A stretch of 19,310 nt of DNA from a virus, in UHGV virus genome UHGV-0366180; one strand, written 5' to 3'. Shown one piece after another: positions 2,489 through 19,310 of this stretch. The notes beneath the pieces are model-generated. The model saw only the letters and a program-made list of their open reading frames with translations. It ran no database searches and was not told the origin of the DNA. Position numbers and translations under genes: made by a program. Within the stretch, counting starts at the first letter, position 1. Each line of letters opens with the position of its first letter.

Positions 2489-2510
2489 AGTTTCTCCAAA
2501 GTTAATTTTA

Positions 2511-2530
2511 GAGGGTCTTTTACGACCCTC
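2511..2530 (-). other. Perfect GC-rich hairpin just downstream of the nrdA stop, without a U-tract
   Basis: GAGGGTC-TTTTAC-GACCCTC: 7-bp stem, 6-nt loop. No U-run follows on either strand, so it is not a canonical terminator. Confidence 0.4.
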
Positions 2531-2543
2531 ATAGTTATTAAAA

Positions 2544-4778
2544 CTAAACACCACAACCCTCGCAATAAGCATCTTGTAGTGCAGATTTACCTACACCAAT
2601 GCGACTGTTAAGGTAGTACATGGTTTTCATACCTACTGAGTTGGCATAAATCATATACTTCAAAGCTTGAGCCAATGATACCTTCTTCGCTTTTGCGTAG
2701 TCAACATAGAAATCTGAAGAGATAGCTTGACCAGTGAACTTTTGAACAATTGCATAACAATCAATCAGGTCAAAGGTGTCAATATCCCAAGCAATTTCAT
2801 AGACATACTTCAACTCTTCGTAATCTGGAACAATAAACAGTACGTTACCAGTTGCAGACTTTTTAGTTAAAATAAAGTCACGAATTGGATACAAGCCATT
2901 TGTTGTATTAGTTGCCAGTGAAGAACTCTCATTAGGCATGTAAGCTTCTAATACGGAGTTACGGATTCCACCATTTTCTTTAATACGTTGTGCTAAGTCA
3001 TCCCAATCATAACGAAGTTTTGCATCATGCTTCTCATCAATCTTCTTGTTAGCTGTCTTTGGAGGAACCCACCCTTCAGGATACTTAGTGAACTTCATGT
3101 ATTCTGGAACACCACGCTCTTTAGCAAGTCTCAGAGAGGCTTCATGCAGATAGTAAGAGTGCATCTCTGCAAGTTCATGAAGTTTCGTTTTACCTGCTCG
3201 TGAAGAGTAGTTCACATAGTTCTTCGCAAGGTAATGAGCCACATTTGTAAGGCCAATCCCAACAGAACGACGCTTCTGAACATGGTTACGCATCGACGGA
3301 TACGGATAATCCATAAGGTCAATAACGGAGTCAACCATTGCAAGAGCATAATAAGCAACGTCAGCGTATTCATCTTCTGAAATTCTCCCTGCAACCAAAC
3401 TAGCTAGGAAGCAAAGAGCCACCTCACCATCCTCTTTCACAGCATCGTCTCTGTAAAGGTCTGTCTCTTTCTCAAAACCATACACTGGCAACACAATTTC
3501 CATGCAAAGATTTGACATCTTCAATGGCTCTTTAAATGGTGTATGTGTGTTTGCATTGTTAGTGAAGAATGGATACACACGACCTGTAGCATAACGCTGT
3601 TGAATAAACAGTTTAGCAATTTCACGAGCCTTGACTCGTCTGTGCTTGACTCCTGAATGTACTGCGTGACCAACTGCCATAGCAAACTCATCAGCAGATG
3701 CTGTGTAGAACATGTCATAGAGTTTTGGTGCATCTTTGTAAGAGAATAGCAACCAATCCGTATCATACTGAACACACTGCCAGAAATAATCATTTGTACC
3801 GAATGAGTAGTCCATCTCGTTAATACGTTTCGAAGGAACCGTTGTAGGGTGCTTCAAACGCAGTAAATCTTCAATCTGCGGGTCTAGAGCAGTGTAGAAG
3901 TTGTTAGCTGAACCACCACGGCTCTTCTGTTTGTTTGCCTCTACAGAGGAACGTACAAGCTTGTAATAAGGCAGTTTACCCATGTGCTCAATAGTATTTT
4001 GACGGATACCATCACCAATAGTACGAGTCTCCATCAGCATCCCAATGCCAGCTTGCTTTGTAGTCATATCATAAGCAACCTTTGCAGCAATACCAAGTGA
4101 CTCAGCAGTATCATTTGCTTTAATCAAACAACATGACGCATAACCTGACTTAGTAGCACGTAAACCATTCAGATAAGGTGTAGGAGCGTTAATCTTCAGG
4201 TCAGATAGGTAAGTGTATAGCTTAATAACATCTTGCAGTCTACGGTTCTTTGGTTGCTTCTCAAAGGCTTTCATAGCCATACCCATAAACATAAATTGTG
4301 GTGACTCAAAAAGTCTTCCCGTTTTAATATCACGGATTCCATATTTATCCCTGAACTGTTTCAACACTGCATAGCCGTAAGAGATATCTTTTGAGTGCAC
4401 AATATAACCTTGCAGATATTCAAGCTCTTCCTGAGAATAGTCCATCTTCTCCCAAAGTCCTGCTCTCTCCATATTTTTAACGAAGGTAACCAGCGTAGGA
4501 ACCTTAGTAAAGCCTCCAAAGGCTTCTTTGTAGATAATCCCCAGAAGTAGCCGTCCAGCCATGTCTGAGTACTCTTGAGTTTGTTTATCAACACAAACAT
4601 CAATCATAGCTTGGTGCATCTCTTTTGTGGTGCAACCTTCATAGACACGTTTCATGGCTTCCATAGTGACTTCTGACCAGATGATTCCACGCTTATCTGC
4701 CCATGATGCCCACTTATTCAGTCTTTCTGGGTCAAAGCTTACTACTGTACCGTTTGATTTTTTAATTGTCTTAATCAT
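2544..4778 (-). CDS. nrdA: Ribonucleotide reductase class I large subunit (744 aa)
   Basis: N-terminal ATP-cone-like region (KKSNGTVVSFDPERLNKW); catalytic motif SNLCMEIVLP (class Ia NxCxE); C-terminal CxxC tail (YCEGCGV); ATG at 4778..4776. Confidence 0.9.
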   Translation of the reverse strand: MIKTIKKSNGTVVSFDPERLNKWASWADKRGIIWSEVTMEAMKRVYEGCTTKEMHQAMIDVCVDKQTQEYSDMAGRLLLGIIYKEAFGGFTKVPTLVTFVKNMERAGLWEKMDYSQEELEYLQGYIVHSKDISYGYAVLKQFRDKYGIRDIKTGRLFESPQFMFMGMAMKAFEKQPKNRRLQDVIKLYTYLSDLKINAPTPYLNGLRATKSGYASCCLIKANDTAESLGIAAKVAYDMTTKQAGIGMLMETRTIGDGIRQNTIEHMGKLPYYKLVRSSVEANKQKSRGGSANNFYTALDPQIEDLLRLKHPTTVPSKRINEMDYSFGTNDYFWQCVQYDTDWLLFSYKDAPKLYDMFYTASADEFAMAVGHAVHSGVKHRRVKAREIAKLFIQQRYATGRVYPFFTNNANTHTPFKEPLKMSNLCMEIVLPVYGFEKETDLYRDDAVKEDGEVALCFLASLVAGRISEDEYADVAYYALAMVDSVIDLMDYPYPSMRNHVQKRRSVGIGLTNVAHYLAKNYVNYSSRAGKTKLHELAEMHSYYLHEASLRLAKERGVPEYMKFTKYPEGWVPPKTANKKIDEKHDAKLRYDWDDLAQRIKENGGIRNSVLEAYMPNESSSLATNTTNGLYPIRDFILTKKSATGNVLFIVPDYEELKYVYEIAWDIDTFDLIDCYAIVQKFTGQAISSDFYVDYAKAKKVSLAQALKYMIYANSVGMKTMYYLNSRIGVGKSALQDAYCEGCGV

Positions 4779-14084: not shown

Positions 14085-14341
14085 GTAAGCCTCTTTTAAG
14101 TAACTATTAAGTTTTAATCTTTTATCTTAACGTATTCTATACGTTATACTTTAAAGCTTTTTAAAAGCTATTAAATAATCTTTTAAGAGTTTTAAAGTAT
14201 CTGTATAGTTAAACTGTTAAGTAACCTTTTAAGTAAAAACCCACTTCGCAAAGATTAACACCTTGTCAAGCGCATTGTCAACTTGCTTTTTATAATTTTT
14301 TGCAGTAATGTATGAGGTTAATGATTTTAGAGGGAGTAAAA
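14085..14341. promoter_or_regulatory. Divergent AT-rich control region between the minus-strand train and the polymerase gene, with repeated motifs
   Basis: About 257 bp non-coding. TTAAGTAA at 14096-14103, 14217-14224 and 14229-14236; tandem TTGTCA at 14263-14268 and 14275-14280; TATAAT at 14291-14296; SD AGGGAG at 14331-14336. Confidence 0.45.
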
Positions 14342-17041
14342 ATGGAAAACGTAGATTTTAAAAACTTACATTTAGTTGGTGATACAGAAACTGATGGTTT
14401 ACTCCTTGAGTTCACTAAAGTGCACGTAATGGCTTTCGCAGACTATAAATCTGACGATGAAGAGCCACCTGTATGGGTCTTTACAGATGAGCCTATCCTC
14501 GGTCACAAGTACACTAAGTACATCAAGGGTGGCTTACGTGAAGGTATTGAGTTTGCGTTAAAGGCAAAACGTCTTTGCATTCATAATGGTCTAGGTTATG
14601 ACTGGTGGGTTTTCAATCACATTGCACCGGATTTATGGAACTTTGATAACCCAAAGTGTAAGCCGTGGAGTAATTTCTTTCAGGATTCTCTTATCCAGTC
14701 TCGTGTTCAGTGGATGGATAGACCAACTCCAAAGGGTTATAAAGGTGCTCATGGTTTGGCTGCATGGGGTGCTCGTGTTGGTGTTCGTAAGCCAGAGATT
14801 GAGCATTGGGGTGTGTGGAATGCAGAAATCTTCACTCGTGTTGTAGAAGATATCCGTATTAACGCCAAAACTAAACGGGCACTTGATAATGAGTATCTCA
14901 AGCTTAAGAAGTGTGGCATCGACACTTATGAAACCTACATGCGAGCTAAAGAAACATCTTTCTGGATGAGTCAACAAGCTATCAATGGTTGGAAAGCTGA
15001 TAAAGAGCTTATGGAGTTCCATGTAAAGGAACTTGACAAGTTGACTAATGAACTTGCTTCAGAAGTTGAACCGCATCTACCTCCAACTATTAAGACCAAA
15101 GGTAAAGTCACTGGAGAAGAGTTTGCAAAAGCTTGGAATGAGTATGTTGAAGCATTTGGTCATGCAGATGGACTGAAGAGAATCACCAAGTACCCTAAGA
15201 CAAAGTATCGTCAGCAGGTACGTAATGGTGAGATGCAAACATATGAAATCAAGCCATTTGGTAAGCCAACTACAAAGATTTTTAACATTGAAAAAAGGAA
15301 TTGCTATACACCAACCAACACTGTAACTGGTGAAGAGTACAAGGAAGGCTTTGTAGCAATGAAGGATGCTCGTGCAATTTGCAATGAGTTGAACGCAAAG
15401 ATTGGTAAGAAATGCAAAGACTGGAAGCCAGTAAAAACAGTCAAAACTGTGAAGTACTATAACAGCCACGTTGTTAACCACTTTGAACTTGAGTCAAGTC
15501 GCTACACAGGTTTGATTGATGCACCATATACACCAATTGAGTTTGAAGTTTCTCGTATGACTCAGGTAGCAGTTGTTAAAGACTACTTGAAATCAGTTGG
15601 TTGGATTCCAGATGACTGGAACTACAAGAAAGACTCTGATGGTCGCCCTGTCAAAGTTTGTCGTTTCAAAGACAATAAAAAGATGATTACAAAGCATCCT
15701 AAGTGGCAGGAAATGGTTGAGCGGTGTGGTTTGAGTTATGTTGAACACGAAGGCGTCCAGTACATTGAGCATAACTGGTCTGTGAAGAAGTACACAGATT
15801 TGCTTGAGCCTTGCTTAATCCGTACTTCACCAAAACTTACTGAATCATCTTACGATACGATTGAAGGTGAGCTTGGACAGAAGATTGCTAAATACTACAC
15901 TTTGATGCACCGACGCAGAACTATTGAGAACTCAAAGGATGATGAAAAAGGTTGGTTGAACCAGATTCGTCCTGATGGTCGCCTTAGTGCTGGTGCAATG
16001 GTGTTTGGTACTTCAACTGGACGTATGACACAGTATGGTATTGTAAACGTACCGTCTGGTGCTGCTGTCTATGGGGAACCAATGAGGGCAGTGTGGATTT
16101 GTGAGGAAGGTACTAACGTTGTCTCTGTAGACATGAACTCAGCCCAGCTAGTTCTTCTTTGTAACTTTATGGGTGATAAAGACTTCACCAAAGCGGTAAC
16201 GCAAGGTAAAGAAGAAATTGAGTTCATTCGTCAAGAAGATGGACGCTATTACTGTAAACACTTTGATGAGTACCTCAACCCAGAGATTGATAAGTACCTT
16301 CGCTATGACTCTGAGAATGACCTGTACGTTGTCTATTCAGGGACTGATGCACATACACTGAACAGTATTTACTTTAACTTGAACGATGAGCAGGACATCT
16401 TGACTTGTCGAGCTACTCAGGATGAGAATCTTCTTCATGAGATTAGCAAGGGTCGTAAGAAAGCTAAGAATGGTATCTATGCACTGCTGTTCGGTGCAGG
16501 TGATGAGAAGTTTGCTAAGACGATTAAAGCTGCAACTACTCAGGAAGGTGCGCTGACTAAACAGACTTACTTTATTCGTTTGCCTAAAATTAAAAAGCTG
16601 CTAGATGACTTGGAAGCTGACTACAAAGCAACTAAAAAGGCACTTGAAGAGGTGTTTGGTAAGACTGCTGCAATTTCTAAAGGGGGCTTTGTAAAGGTTG
16701 CTGGAGCTTGGTTGTGGTGTAAATCTCCACATAAGTTATTGAATTATTTGCTCATGGGTTCGGAAAGTCAGATTCAAAATGAGGCAATTAACCTTGCTTG
16801 TAGAAGAGTATGTGAAGAAGGATTGACAAAATTAAATGGACGAAAACCAGCAATCGGTGCTAGGCTTTTGCTGGCATACCACGATGAAAACAGTTGGGAA
16901 TGCCCAGAAAGTATGACTCAAGAAGTTAAAGCCATAACTGACTGGATGTATGGTCAGGCATCTAAGAATTTAGGTTTGAAGAGTGAGACGCTTGTAACTG
17001 GCACAGGTAAGGTTGGTAAGAGCTGGTATGAGGTACATTGA
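14342..17041 (+). CDS. DNA polymerase, family A (T7 gp5-like) with 3'-5' exonuclease domain, 899 aa
   Basis: Exo I VGDTETDGL; Exo II HNGLGYDWWVF (compare T7 HNGHKYD); pre-motif-A TSTGRMTQYGIVNVPS; motif A SVDMNSAQLVLL; motif B RKKAKNGIYALLFGAG; motif C YHDE. Start moved from the ORF-track 14312 to ATG 14342, which has SD AGGGAG 5 nt upstream. Confidence 0.9.
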   Translation: MENVDFKNLHLVGDTETDGLLLEFTKVHVMAFADYKSDDEEPPVWVFTDEPILGHKYTKYIKGGLREGIEFALKAKRLCIHNGLGYDWWVFNHIAPDLWNFDNPKCKPWSNFFQDSLIQSRVQWMDRPTPKGYKGAHGLAAWGARVGVRKPEIEHWGVWNAEIFTRVVEDIRINAKTKRALDNEYLKLKKCGIDTYETYMRAKETSFWMSQQAINGWKADKELMEFHVKELDKLTNELASEVEPHLPPTIKTKGKVTGEEFAKAWNEYVEAFGHADGLKRITKYPKTKYRQQVRNGEMQTYEIKPFGKPTTKIFNIEKRNCYTPTNTVTGEEYKEGFVAMKDARAICNELNAKIGKKCKDWKPVKTVKTVKYYNSHVVNHFELESSRYTGLIDAPYTPIEFEVSRMTQVAVVKDYLKSVGWIPDDWNYKKDSDGRPVKVCRFKDNKKMITKHPKWQEMVERCGLSYVEHEGVQYIEHNWSVKKYTDLLEPCLIRTSPKLTESSYDTIEGELGQKIAKYYTLMHRRRTIENSKDDEKGWLNQIRPDGRLSAGAMVFGTSTGRMTQYGIVNVPSGAAVYGEPMRAVWICEEGTNVVSVDMNSAQLVLLCNFMGDKDFTKAVTQGKEEIEFIRQEDGRYYCKHFDEYLNPEIDKYLRYDSENDLYVVYSGTDAHTLNSIYFNLNDEQDILTCRATQDENLLHEISKGRKKAKNGIYALLFGAGDEKFAKTIKAATTQEGALTKQTYFIRLPKIKKLLDDLEADYKATKKALEEVFGKTAAISKGGFVKVAGAWLWCKSPHKLLNYLLMGSESQIQNEAINLACRRVCEEGLTKLNGRKPAIGARLLLAYHDENSWECPESMTQEVKAITDWMYGQASKNLGLKSETLVTGTGKVGKSWYEVH

Positions 17042-17051
17042 TGGTGTTGAA

Positions 17052-17564
17052 ATGATTACAGAAATTCGTCTTAAGGAGCTATTGGACTATGACCCCGAAA
17101 CAGGGGTCTTTACTTGGAAGTTTAGAGAAGGTAATGCAAACTTTAACTCTAGATTTGGAGGTAAGAGGGCTGGAAACTACAGAACAAATACTGATGGACA
17201 CAAGTCAGTTCAGTTGTTGATTGATGGAAGGAGTTACCAAGCAAATCGTTTAGTTATCTTGTATATGGATGGATATCTGCCTGATAAAACCTTACAGGTT
17301 GACCATCAGAATGGGGACGGTTGGGACAATAGGTACTTGAATTTAAGGGTTTGTACAGCTTCACAAAACTCTTGCAATCGGTCAAGAAAGTCTCCATCTG
17401 GGTTGCCAAAAGGTGTACAGAAGATAAGTAAAAGGTTTCGAGCAATGATACGTTTACAAGGTAAAAACTATCATCTTGGTATGTTTGACACACCTGAAGA
17501 AGCCCATAAAGCTTACTGTGAAGCTGCTATTAAACTCCACGGAGAGTTTGCAAAACTAAGTTGA
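17052..17564 (+). CDS. HNH endonuclease with C-terminal AP2-type domain (copy B)
   Basis: HNH motif VDHQNGDGWDNRYLNLRVCTASQN; AP2-like GVQKISKRFRAMIRLQGKNYHLGMFDTPEEAHKAY; shares the YDPETGVFTW block with copy A. An alternative start at ATG 17028 is possible. Confidence 0.75.
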   Translation: MITEIRLKELLDYDPETGVFTWKFREGNANFNSRFGGKRAGNYRTNTDGHKSVQLLIDGRSYQANRLVILYMDGYLPDKTLQVDHQNGDGWDNRYLNLRVCTASQNSCNRSRKSPSGLPKGVQKISKRFRAMIRLQGKNYHLGMFDTPEEAHKAYCEAAIKLHGEFAKLS

Positions 17565-17589
17565 CAAGGTGCTCAGGGAAGAGTACCTT
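17561..17589 (+). promoter_or_regulatory. Weak candidate sigma70 promoter overlapping the HNH stop
   Basis: Perfect -35 TTGACA at 17561-17566; the only -10-like hexamer at 17-nt spacing is TACCTT (17584-17589); TATACT sits at a 22-nt spacing, too far. Confidence 0.25.
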
Positions 17590-17615
17590 ATACTGTATCT
17601 TGTATAGGAGGACTT

Positions 17616-17726
17616 ATGAGCCACCGTGGAAGAACCCATGCAGCGATGATGAAAGGTGCTTCAAAGGAAACTATCAAGAATCGTACTGGAGTCCTTAAGG
17701 GCGAACGTATTAATATTGACTTCTGA
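17616..17726 (+). CDS. Small ORF (36 aa), basic
   Basis: Strong SD AGGAGG 4 nt before ATG 17616; hand translation MSHRGRTHAAMMKGASKETIKNRTGVLKGERINIDF; under the ORF-track size cut-off. Confidence 0.3.
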   Translation: MSHRGRTHAAMMKGASKETIKNRTGVLKGERINIDF

Positions 17727-17743
17727 ATATTGGGATACCGAAA

Positions 17744-17899
17744 ATGAAACGCAAAGTTAAGTTTTTTAATTTATATGGAAGAGTTGATAAAGGTTTTGAC
17801 TGGCAACTGTTACGTTCAAATGTTAAAAGCAATGAATTAGCACAACTTATCATTCATTATCGACGTATATACAGAGAAGTAGAGCATCGTGAACAGTAA
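17744..17899 (+). CDS. Small ORF (51 aa), basic
   Basis: ATG 17744 with weak SD (GGGATA); hand translation MKRKVKFFNLYGRVDKGFDWQLLRSNVKSNELAQLIIHYRRIYREVEHREQ; fills an otherwise non-coding gap. Confidence 0.3.
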   Translation: MKRKVKFFNLYGRVDKGFDWQLLRSNVKSNELAQLIIHYRRIYREVEHREQ

Positions 17900-17912
17900 T
17901 AGGAGAAGTGCT

Positions 17913-18149
17913 ATGTGGAAAGTAGTAATTGCGCTTGGTGTTATTTTTCTATCTGGCTGCAACCCTTCTTATGAAGATAAAAATGCTTCTTACAGTCTCC
18001 CACCAGAGATGCAAGATTGCAGAGTATACAAGTTACATGGTGATGCTATAAGCAGAGATATTGTTGTTGTAAGATGCCCAAATTCTCAAACAACAACATC
18101 TTACAGCTATGGCAAAAATGGACAATCACACACTACGGTTATTGAGTGA
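17913..18149 (+). CDS. Small lipoprotein precursor (78 aa)
   Basis: ATG 17913 with SD AGGAGA 6 nt upstream (the ORF-track start at 17889 is GTG); signal peptide MWKVVIALGVIFLSGC ending in a lipobox-like LSGC. Confidence 0.55.
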   Translation: MWKVVIALGVIFLSGCNPSYEDKNASYSLPPEMQDCRVYKLHGDAISRDIVVVRCPNSQTTTSYSYGKNGQSHTTVIE

Positions 18150-18159
18150 GGTTTTCACG

Positions 18160-18366
18160 ATGGAAGTCTTAGTAAACTACATCTATTGTTATGATGCTGT
18201 TCACTCCACTACAACCGTAGCTCAACGTAATCCAATCGTCCCACGAGAAGGTGAGTTGGTTCGCATTGATGGTTGGACTTACACTGTGGAGAGTATTACT
18301 CACAAGTTTGATGTTGCTGTCGGTGTTCAGGTTATCGACGTGGAAATTGGTGGTAAGAGAAAATGA
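18160..18366 (+). CDS. Hypothetical protein (68 aa)
   Basis: ATG 18160 with GAGG 8 nt upstream; the ORF-track upstream extension overlaps the lipoprotein gene and lacks an SD. Confidence 0.45.
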   Translation: MEVLVNYIYCYDAVHSTTTVAQRNPIVPREGELVRIDGWTYTVESITHKFDVAVGVQVIDVEIGGKRK

Positions 18367-18554
18367 GCAAAGAAGATAATCGTAAAAATGCTGTACGAAC
18401 TCCTGATGGAAAGGTTCAATCCTTCATATTGACAGTTGATGGAAAACCATTCCGTTGCCACTGTGGAGCGAACTGTTTTCATAAGCCAGATAAAAACGAC
18501 TTAGAGCTTTACGCATGTAATGCTTGTGACACTTGGTATCACTCGGAGGGTTAA
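18363..18554 (+). CDS. Small cysteine-rich zinc-ribbon-like protein (63 aa)
   Basis: Two Cys pairs, CHCGANCFH and CNAC, about 20 residues apart; ATGA overlap with the upstream ORF. Confidence 0.5.
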   Translation: MSKEDNRKNAVRTPDGKVQSFILTVDGKPFRCHCGANCFHKPDKNDLELYACNACDTWYHSEG

Positions 18555-18556
18555 TT

Positions 18557-19117
18557 ATGATATATACTAAACATCTTCATGATAAAATGATTGAACATAA
18601 CTTAAGATGTGTATACTTGAGGCTTAATGATAATAGCCTTCGCAGGTCTTGGTACAAAATAAAGAAGGAAGAATATTCAGATAAAGCACCTAAAAAGAGA
18701 GCTATACTTCAGTTTTGGTATGAGACAAATGCCACACCTTTCAATCATGAAGATTTCTATGGAGAGTATAAGGATATTTGTGAGAACCTGTGCATACCCC
18801 AATTTGACAGTATTGACGTACTTCTAAGTGACTTGTATGAAAGGTTTTCTAAATATGCTTTTAAAGAACAGTTTAAGGATTGTGTAAAATACTGTGATGG
18901 CTCTTTAAAGTTGTATAAATTTAGAATCACTGGTAAGCTTGCTTACAAGACCAAAGATGGTGACTTTATAGACTTCTATGATAGGGATGTTATCAACCTT
19001 CCTGAGCAGTGCTTCGAATTATACGGCGAGGCACTTTCAGAGACTGGCATTAAGATTCCTGTAAAAAGACATATGCTTCAAGGGGAGTTAAATGACAATT
19101 CTGTACAAACAAAATAA
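18557..19117 (+). CDS. Hypothetical protein (186 aa)
   Basis: ATG 18557 with SD GGAGGG 6 nt upstream (the ORF-track start at 18533 lacks one); no recognisable motif. Confidence 0.5.
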   Translation: MIYTKHLHDKMIEHNLRCVYLRLNDNSLRRSWYKIKKEEYSDKAPKKRAILQFWYETNATPFNHEDFYGEYKDICENLCIPQFDSIDVLLSDLYERFSKYAFKEQFKDCVKYCDGSLKLYKFRITGKLAYKTKDGDFIDFYDRDVINLPEQCFELYGEALSETGIKIPVKRHMLQGELNDNSVQTK

Positions 19118-19310
19118 AGATGGCTCTTTTAACGTCTGGTCATGTGTTGCTGTAGGTGACAAAGTTATCACAACCTATGGTAAAGAAAATGGCAAGATGA
19201 TGTTTGAAGAGTATACAGCAGAACCTAAAAACATCGGTAAAAAGAATGAGCGTAACGCTGAACAGCAAGCCCTCTTTGAAGTTGCTGCTAAGTATAAAAA
19301 GCAAGTTGAC
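19092..19310 (+). CDS. Hypothetical protein, N-terminal fragment running off the window end; possible WGR-like nucleic-acid-binding fold
   Basis: ATG 19092 with SD GGGGAG; open frame to the window end; hand translation MTILYKQNKDGSFNVWSCVAVGDKVITTYGKENGKMMFEEYTAEPKNIGKKNERNAEQQALFEVAAKYKKQVD. Overlaps the upstream gene by 26 nt. Confidence 0.35.
   Translation, partial: MTILYKQNKDGSFNVWSCVAVGDKVITTYGKENGKMMFEEYTAEPKNIGKKNERNAEQQALFEVAAKYKKQVD

Follow-up and report, generated by a model that had tools for sequence, protein, structure and literature searches.

Small genes between the polymerase and the ligase

The DNA analyzed here is a stretch of 19,310 nt from the virus genome UHGV-0366180 (hereafter the window). 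Between positions 17616 and 18554, downstream of the genes for a family-A DNA polymerase and an HNH endonuclease, the window carries five small open reading frames (ORFs), the third of which encodes a predicted lipoprotein. An initial annotation had listed ORFs of 36, 51, 78, 68 and 63 amino acids (aa) in this region, and all five were recovered in our analysis. Four of them are genuine small genes, whereas ORF1 is a deletion scar. The five ORFs are listed below together with their matches to PHROG families and, where available, the ratio of nonsynonymous to synonymous substitution rates (dN/dS).

17616-17726, plus strand: ORF1, 36-aa fusion ORF with two PHROG half-matches; junction at about 17681-17685
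17744-17899, plus strand: ORF2, 51-aa basic protein, isoelectric point (pI) 10.2; phrog_2381, E = 2.3e-18, full length; dN/dS 0.13
17913-18149, plus strand: ORF3, 78-aa predicted prolipoprotein, DUF4884/phrog_902; phrog_902, E = 1.3e-16, residues 1-76; dN/dS 0.11
18160-18366, plus strand: ORF4, 68-aa acidic cytoplasmic protein; phrog_4427, E = 3.2e-43, positions 1-68 of 68; dN/dS 0.11
18363-18554, plus strand: ORF5, 63-aa Cys-rich zinc-knuckle protein; phrog_5768, E = 2.1e-39; ATGA-coupled to the 68-aa gene; dN/dS 0.09

The window comes from a Felixounavirus, i.e. a Felix O1-like phage, and represents its replication module. A megablast search with positions 17000-19310 returned 259 phage records with 80-99% identity, nearly all of them Felixounavirus (Ounavirinae), and the hosts of these phages are Escherichia, Salmonella, Shigella and Citrobacter. 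NrdB, NrdA, a MazG-like protein, an exonuclease, a primase-helicase and a deoxynucleoside monophosphate kinase are encoded on the minus strand. On the plus strand lie the genes for the family-A polymerase (909 aa) and an HNH-AP2 endonuclease, followed by the small ORFs and by the beginning of the gene for an ATP-dependent ligase. The small genes are part of this same-strand string from polymerase to ligase and appear to be co-transcribed with it. Scans of the window with Rfam models and for tRNAs gave no matches.

Four of the five ORFs are genes under purifying selection

The ORFs are tightly packed, as had been described, but the ATGA coupling assigned to some of them is found for just one pair, the 68-aa and 63-aa genes (18363-18366), while the other gaps measure 10-17 nt. 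A Shine-Dalgarno-like motif precedes the start of every ORF, the clearest being the AGGAG located 7 nt before the ATG of the lipoprotein gene. The first two ORFs do encode basic products, with a pI of 11.0 for that of ORF1.

To assess the coding status, dN/dS values were calculated as Nei-Gojobori medians over orthologues from 25 related loci. The medians for ORFs 2-5 all lie between 0.09 and 0.13, each of these ORFs displays a clear excess of changes at third codon positions among the same loci, and full-length matches to PHROG families were obtained for all four (E values from 1e-16 to 1e-43). Thus, ORFs 2-5 are real genes under purifying selection. In principle, the small ORFs could have arisen by chance and lack a function, or they could be genes in decay. 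ORF1 is such a remnant, and the 51-aa and lipoprotein genes are often skipped by automated annotators. Given the selection values, the PHROG matches and the presence of the small genes in hundreds of records, this explanation is extremely improbable, and for ORFs 2-5 it is ruled out by the selection analysis. Scans of all small proteins against Pfam, NCBIfam and PADLOC returned nothing significant.

ORF1 is a fusion left by a deletion

Of the two frames described as tiny basic ORFs, the 51-aa ORF is a conserved gene, and the 36-aa ORF turned out to be the scar of a deletion. ORF1 matches two different PHROGs: its residues 1-33 correspond to the first half of phrog_5180, its residues 19-35 to the very end of phrog_4230. 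In relatives, the site is occupied by two conserved genes, a 69-aa gene (phrog_5180) followed by a 70-aa gene (phrog_4230). Positions 17000-17685 of the window align to positions 1501-2186 of phage warpig (L001), and positions 17682-18573 align to positions 2491-3382 of the same phage. Thus, 308 bp are missing in comparison with warpig, and the missing segment lies between two CCGTA repeats, i.e. at a microhomology. The reading frames of the two parent genes differ by 2 nt, and the loss of 308 bp therefore joins residues 1-23 of the 69-aa protein in frame to residues 58-70 of the 70-aa protein.

The 70-aa gene is kept in all 25 related loci and the 69-aa gene in 21 of them, whereas the junction of ORF1 occurs in none. 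Likewise, all 20 phage records covering a 201-nt query that crosses the junction do so as two pieces that span about 505 bp. ORF1 is therefore an in-frame fusion and not an ancestral gene; most of two genes of about 70 aa is gone, and the deletion is unique to this genome among the records compared. Unless it is an assembly artefact, the deletion implies that the 69-aa and the 70-aa genes are both dispensable.

The 78-aa protein is a predicted lipoprotein

The precursor encoded by ORF3 reads MWK-VVIALGVIFL-SG-C16-N, with a predicted signal peptide of residues 1-15 and the lipobox L13-S14-G15-C16. As in substrates of signal peptidase II (PROSITE PS51257-type rule), K3 lies within the first seven residues (R5 and R6 in the form starting at GTG), the ten residues V4-L13 form a hydrophobic stretch devoid of charge, the [LVI][ASTVI][GAS]C lipobox follows, and the Cys is at position 16, the rule allowing 15-35.

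17958-17960, plus strand: codon of Cys16, the predicted lipidated +1 Cys as read from the sequence; the next codon is Asn (+2)

The lipoprotein with an LSGC lipobox noticed in the initial annotation is thus borne out by its positive n-region, its uncharged h-region, the lipobox and a Cys that is invariant in the family, and we regard this prediction as sound and well supported. The mature protein would comprise 63 aa (7.1 kDa) and contain the conserved residues C36 and C55. According to the established Lol-sorting rules, Asn at position +2 predicts sorting to the outer membrane, so that this protein is expected to reside there. An alternative start at GTG 17889 would give 86 aa, but this upstream GTG is not conserved. 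The start that yields 78 aa is conserved, as an ATG or, in Felix O1 and Mushroom, as a GTG, and so is the AGGA(G) upstream of it; gene callers give the identical 78-aa product on four independent contigs.

An AlphaFold2 (AF2) model of the lipoprotein reached a predicted local distance difference test (pLDDT) score of 62. Comparison of this model with known structures revealed no similar fold, a result made uninformative by the poor quality of the model. Sequence searches of the PDB with the single protein and with a profile of its family gave matches at the level of the signal peptide only.

A widespread stand-alone gene of virulent phages

When a profile built from close homologues was searched against 1.84 billion representative sequences, 656 clusters reached E <= 1e-3, and almost all of them comprise proteins of 75-90 aa. 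A canonical lipobox is present in 149 of the 162 retrieved family members, and C16, C36 and C55 are invariant in alignments of 62 and of 37 members. The family motif is LPxELxDC...VVRCPNSxTTT...GK. PF16225:DUF4884 is the precomputed label on proteins 59-97% identical to the window protein and on the exact 78-aa protein itself. By its sequence, the window protein is a typical family member, and nothing sets it apart from DUF4884/phrog_902. In one distant member (L054, 3866-4207), the lipobox is missing and a hydrophobic segment is found at the N-terminus (FAALVIIAVFMVIAVYY), suggesting that the lipid anchor can be replaced by a transmembrane one.

By tblastn the family was found in 586 phage records. 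Apart from Felixounavirus, it is carried by vibriophages of about 114 kb with T5-like replication genes, by T4-like Acinetobacter and Pseudomonas phages, by Obolenskvirus and Stephanstirmvirinae, and by jumbo phages of 350-375 kb. In every context examined, the gene lies among early, replication or nucleotide-metabolism genes. The initial annotation had considered a lipoprotein inside a replication module unexpected; this does not hold, as distant members are likewise located in such regions of many virulent phages. When the neighboring ORFs of 25 diverse DUF4884 loci were clustered, no conserved partner emerged; genes for enzymes resembling polynucleotide kinase (PNK) and MazG recur, in three loci each. 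Since there is no conserved partner gene, the lipoprotein gene is a stand-alone gene whose product would work alone.

None of 5,426 complete E. coli genomes matched the whole 939-bp stretch at the DNA level, and the lipoprotein had a single match in 72,556 plasmids. A scan with a degenerate motif over one genome per bacterial species yielded 92 matches, all of which are attributable to chance. The family therefore looks like essentially a gene of virulent phages of Gram-negative bacteria.

The block is largely conserved and plastic

The view of the region as an accessory or moron-like islet was not supported. The G+C content is 0.38-0.39 across positions 17401-18600 as compared to 0.389 for the whole window. 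A consensus scan, the only kind of scan made for such signals, counted 14 promoter-like sites (13.9 expected in shuffled sequences) and three terminator-like sites (3.9 expected), and found no promoter- or terminator-like sites bracketing the small-gene cluster. The gene order is that of Felix O1, where the HNH gene is followed by the 69-aa gene, the gene of about 70 aa, the lipoprotein gene (ORF213), the 68-aa gene (ORF211), the zinc-knuckle gene (ORF210) and the ligase gene. A moron was thus rejected as a description of this block, which has no promoter or terminator signals of its own, no deviating G+C content and the gene order of Felix O1.

The block is mostly ordinary for Felixounaviruses: it is largely conserved and near-core, yet plastic, and it is not a foreign islet. 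The C-terminus of the polymerase was found in 301 records of the phage collection. The lipoprotein is present at >=60% identity in at least 197 records as compared to 257 with the 68-aa gene, i.e. in about four fifths of the relatives. The gene content varies among relatives in that the HNH, 51-aa, lipoprotein and zinc-knuckle genes and a 186-aa gene come and go. In this respect the region resembles T4-type "hyperplastic" regions and morons, where small genes between replication genes are gained, lost and replaced among relatives; it differs from them in having no promoter or terminator of its own, no G+C deviation and mostly near-core genes.

Phage Meda (L151, 1273-1501) has neither the 51-aa gene nor the lipoprotein gene and is nevertheless a lytic isolate. 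In ph2-2 (L152, 1237-1491), the lipoprotein gene is absent and its slot is held by the gene for an unrelated 84-aa cytoplasmic protein, phrog_9065. The phrog_9065 gene occurs at >=80% identity in 12 records (the ph2-2 group), among which loss of the lipoprotein was verified for ph2-2 itself only, and Moogle- and Sf13-like phages carry the phrog_9065 and lipoprotein genes in tandem. As Meda and ph2-2 lack it, the lipoprotein gene is dispensable.

Possible functions of the lipoprotein

Searches of the literature on Felixounavirus with lipoprotein or superinfection, and on DUF4884, found no functional study. Judged by sequence rules, the 78-aa precursor would be exported by the Sec pathway, receive its lipid at Cys16 and then be processed by signal peptidase II, with sorting to the outer membrane and disulfide formation as further predicted steps. 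From the two invariant Cys residues and the low-confidence model, the mature protein is pictured as a small beta-rich domain carried on a tether of about 12 residues; a disulfide between C36 and C55 probably closes this domain.

A small outer-membrane lipoprotein calls to mind the o-spanins, and the protein might be an Rz1-like o-spanin subunit or another component of a lysis cassette. Beyond the size and the predicted membrane, which are those of o-spanins, the evidence runs against this possibility. Felixounaviruses already possess an embedded i-/o-spanin pair in their lysis module (PMC4392139, PMC8300805). On inspection, the neighboring 51-aa and 68-aa proteins show no membrane-spanning hydrophobic stretch and no type-II membrane protein is encoded next to the gene; nor is a partner conserved in the 25 loci. 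Pro accounts for 4 of the 63 mature residues as opposed to about a quarter of the residues in lambda Rz1. The gene is located in a replication and nucleotide-metabolism module and not in a lysis cassette, and Meda is lytic without it. A spanin role is therefore very unlikely. The protein resembles lambda Rz1-type o-spanins as a small outer-membrane lipoprotein and differs from them in having no i-spanin partner, in its location outside the lysis cassette and in not being Pro-rich. We rejected the o-spanin assignment because there is no i-spanin-like neighbor, the genus has a separate spanin pair and the gene lies outside the lysis cassette.

Small disulfide-bonded periplasmic lipoproteins are proven exclusion factors, as demonstrated for Llp with FhuA (PMC9586334) and Rtp45 with LptDE (PMC12685063). 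Following this analogy, we tentatively favor an exclusion-type role in which the DUF4884 lipoprotein would act in the periplasm as a membrane-tethered binding protein for a conserved envelope component. During infection it would bind a conserved component of the periplasm or envelope of the host and thereby render the infected cell refractory, so that incoming phages would be excluded at or after adsorption or the cell would be protected from lysis from without. The proposed resemblance to Llp is one of logic only, and masking of the phage's own receptor in the manner of Llp is not part of it. The dispensability of the gene fits a competitive or accessory role.

Three observations provide anecdotal support for exclusion. 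In Acj61 (L015, 2459-3049), a T4-like Acinetobacter phage, the DUF4884 gene Acj61p058 is found immediately upstream of Acj61p057, annotated as "spackle periplasmic", and near the primase gene 61; in T4, spackle is known as a locus of superinfection exclusion. Another family member, on a contig of 233 kb, has an Imm_superinfect gene at a distance of 4 kb, and in fEgEco12 the homologue was given the name "lytic conversion lipoprotein" by the annotators. T4 Sp (spackle) and Imm are comparable to the lipoprotein as early, dispensable, envelope-located proteins of a lytic phage, and the immediate neighborhood of a DUF4884 gene and a spackle homologue in Acj61 adds to this likeness in one lineage only. 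Sp and Imm differ in not being lipoproteins, and they are likened here by role and context, not by sequence comparison.

Several points weigh against an exclusion role of this kind. The argument for exclusion is a weak one, built on analogy and on guilt by association in 1-2 of 25 contexts. The PDB copy searched contained no chain, Llp included, with similarity to the lipoprotein, and a local Pfam hmmscan of the lipoprotein gave no PF16225 row even at E <= 10. The early timing of the lipoprotein is deduced from the position of its gene only. Furthermore, family members from Klebsiella, E. coli jumbo and Erwinia jumbo phages (L006, L014, L038, L039) have Asp at position +2, which is the classical inner-membrane retention signal in enterobacteria; the Felixounavirus members have Asn there. 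Because of these members of enterobacterial phages, an outer-membrane location is not a constant of the family; the membrane of residence may differ between members, which argues against a strictly outer-membrane target.

A closer correspondence to T5 Llp had been suggested on account of the size of the protein. Proteins of the Llp/Cor/Rtp45 type bind an outer-membrane protein receptor from the periplasmic side and, by an allosteric effect, block adsorption of the same or related phages. As an analogy this is reasonable: the mature protein of 63 aa is in the size class of Llp (61 aa), it has a predicted lipid anchor, an internal pair of two extra conserved Cys residues and Asn at +2, its gene is located between polymerase and ligase, the precedents mentioned above exist, and one record carries the lytic conversion label. 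Masking of a protein receptor is nevertheless unlikely. The family profile matched T5 Llp (8a60_B) with E = 2 and over the signal-peptide residues 1-18 only, and a phmmer search with the lipoprotein gave no Llp match at E <= 10. T5 llp is adjacent to the receptor-binding gene pb5 (PMC9586334), whereas the neighbors in the window are the polymerase, HNH and ligase genes, and Felixounaviruses are reported to target lipopolysaccharide (LPS) rather than protein receptors (PMC8594841). Moreover, nearly the same domain is found in phages of Vibrio, Acinetobacter, Pseudomonas, Klebsiella and Erwinia, unlike what is seen for receptor-specific exclusion proteins. The assignment as an Llp homologue was rejected, there being no detectable sequence homology beyond the signal peptide.

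Thus, the likeness to T5 Llp consists in a virulent-phage lipoprotein with a mature form of about 7 kDa, an internal Cys pair and a predicted location on the periplasmic face at the outer membrane, and the difference in the absence of a neighboring receptor-binding gene, in LPS as the receptor of the genus and in the conservation of the family across unrelated receptors. Rtp45 and Cor, which bind LptDE or FhuA and come from small siphophages, are disulfide-bonded periplasmic lipoproteins of about 6-7 kDa acting alone (PMC12685063), and in acting alone as a small lipoprotein the DUF4884 protein resembles them. Their genes lie beside the gene for the receptor-binding protein in the structural module, that of the DUF4884 protein between polymerase and ligase. 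No PDB chain matched the latter beyond the signal peptide; a direct comparison with Rtp45 and Cor was not made.

Alternatively, the lipoprotein may serve a takeover of the host envelope that has nothing to do with exclusion. Here, its target, to which it would bind or which it would inhibit, would be a conserved function of the host periplasm such as peptidoglycan hydrolases, the transport of lipoproteins or LPS, or the sensing of envelope stress; as a result, the infected cell would be stabilised, the timing of lysis tuned or an envelope-based defence blunted. The high conservation of the domain across phages with very different hosts and receptors points to a conserved host target and not to a phage-specific receptor, and the mixed +2 residues, Asp included, to a target that is reachable from either membrane. 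The stand-alone nature of the gene and its dispensability are also in line with this possibility, which, although doubtful in its own right, we consider nearly as likely as the exclusion-type role preferred here.

The 51-aa, 68-aa and zinc-knuckle genes

The 51-aa gene is present in 19 of the 25 related loci. The 68-aa gene, for which an alternative start at ATG 18109 would give 85 aa, was found in 257 phage records by tblastn. For the 51-aa and 68-aa proteins, the searches found no informative similarity, the PHROG matches being to families without an assigned function.

The last of the five ORFs encodes the small Cys-rich protein that the initial annotation had called a zinc-ribbon protein. 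A CxC...CxxC pattern is present, and C32-x-C34 and C52-x-x-C55 are invariant; from Felixounavirus out to Erwinia Kolesnikvirus the same holds for the whole set C32, C34, C38, H40, C52 and C55. By tblastn, the gene was found in 225 records across Ounavirinae and some Chaseviridae, including 39 Erwinia phages, and it is absent from some close relatives (L017, L018, L033-L037). No Pfam or NCBIfam match was obtained for the protein, and searches of the PDB gave only non-significant PHD-finger-like matches (E = 0.2-0.3). In several GenBank records (warpig_3, Rouille_00101 and others) the protein is called "DNA ligase", and it contains no ligase domain. Since the gene does not adjoin the ligase gene in Erwinia phage Rouille, this label looks like a propagated misannotation. 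The 51-aa, 68-aa and zinc-knuckle proteins are probably small early cytoplasmic factors directed at the host or at nucleic acids.

Flanking genes

Three further ORFs flank the small genes.

14312-17041, plus strand: DNA polymerase, family A, 909 aa; single uninterrupted ORF
17013-17564, plus strand: HNH-AP2 endonuclease; Pfam HNH_3, E = 5.6e-11
18557-19117, plus strand: 186-aa ORF, a sporadic insertion between the zinc-knuckle gene and the ligase gene, as judged from record counts; G+C content 0.34

The 186-aa ORF is the sole truly sporadic accessory gene of the stretch. It occurs in 16 of 50,697 phage records with alleles that are 35-99% identical, and it is absent from warpig, Mushroom and Felix O1. 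It had no match in Pfam, PHROGs, NCBIfam, PADLOC or the PDB; homologues form three clusters only, and the AF2 model (pLDDT 45) is unusable. Possibly, it is a defence or counter-defence gene.

The polymerase ORF is uninterrupted in the window and in Felix O1. An insert of about 230-380 bp divides it into two or three coding sequences in warpig, Mushroom, SUT_S820 and the contig L150, and in Meda the polymerase annotation joins two pieces. The split and intact forms represent a presence/absence polymorphism of an intervening element. The HNH-AP2 gene is swapped for HNH genes of 40-52% identity, or absent, in many close relatives, and this variation fits a mobile free-standing homing endonuclease. 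Sequences of the Felixounavirus polymerase, lipoprotein or 68-aa gene are also found in GU169904.1 (Staphylococcus phage SA1) and MG065668.1 (Campylobacter phage A126), which are probably mislabelled or contaminated entries.

Conclusions

Overall, the main result for the window is its correct annotation, in which four of the small ORFs are real genes and the remaining one is a deletion scar. Neither Llp-like nor spanin is an appropriate label for the conserved lipoprotein. It represents a family that is strongly conserved, stand-alone and dispensable and that has no assigned function; it extends over 586 phage records and 656 protein clusters. Speculatively, the DUF4884 lipoproteins may constitute a widespread class of envelope effectors of virulent phages that address one conserved periplasmic host target and bring about generic, receptor-independent exclusion or anti-defence. 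If this were true, their mechanism would differ in kind from that of Llp, Cor and Rtp45.

Felixounaviruses are used in the biocontrol of Salmonella and E. coli, and a factor that alters the envelope or excludes other phages would matter for the design of phage cocktails. As natural variants with and without the lipoprotein gene exist, the question is directly testable.

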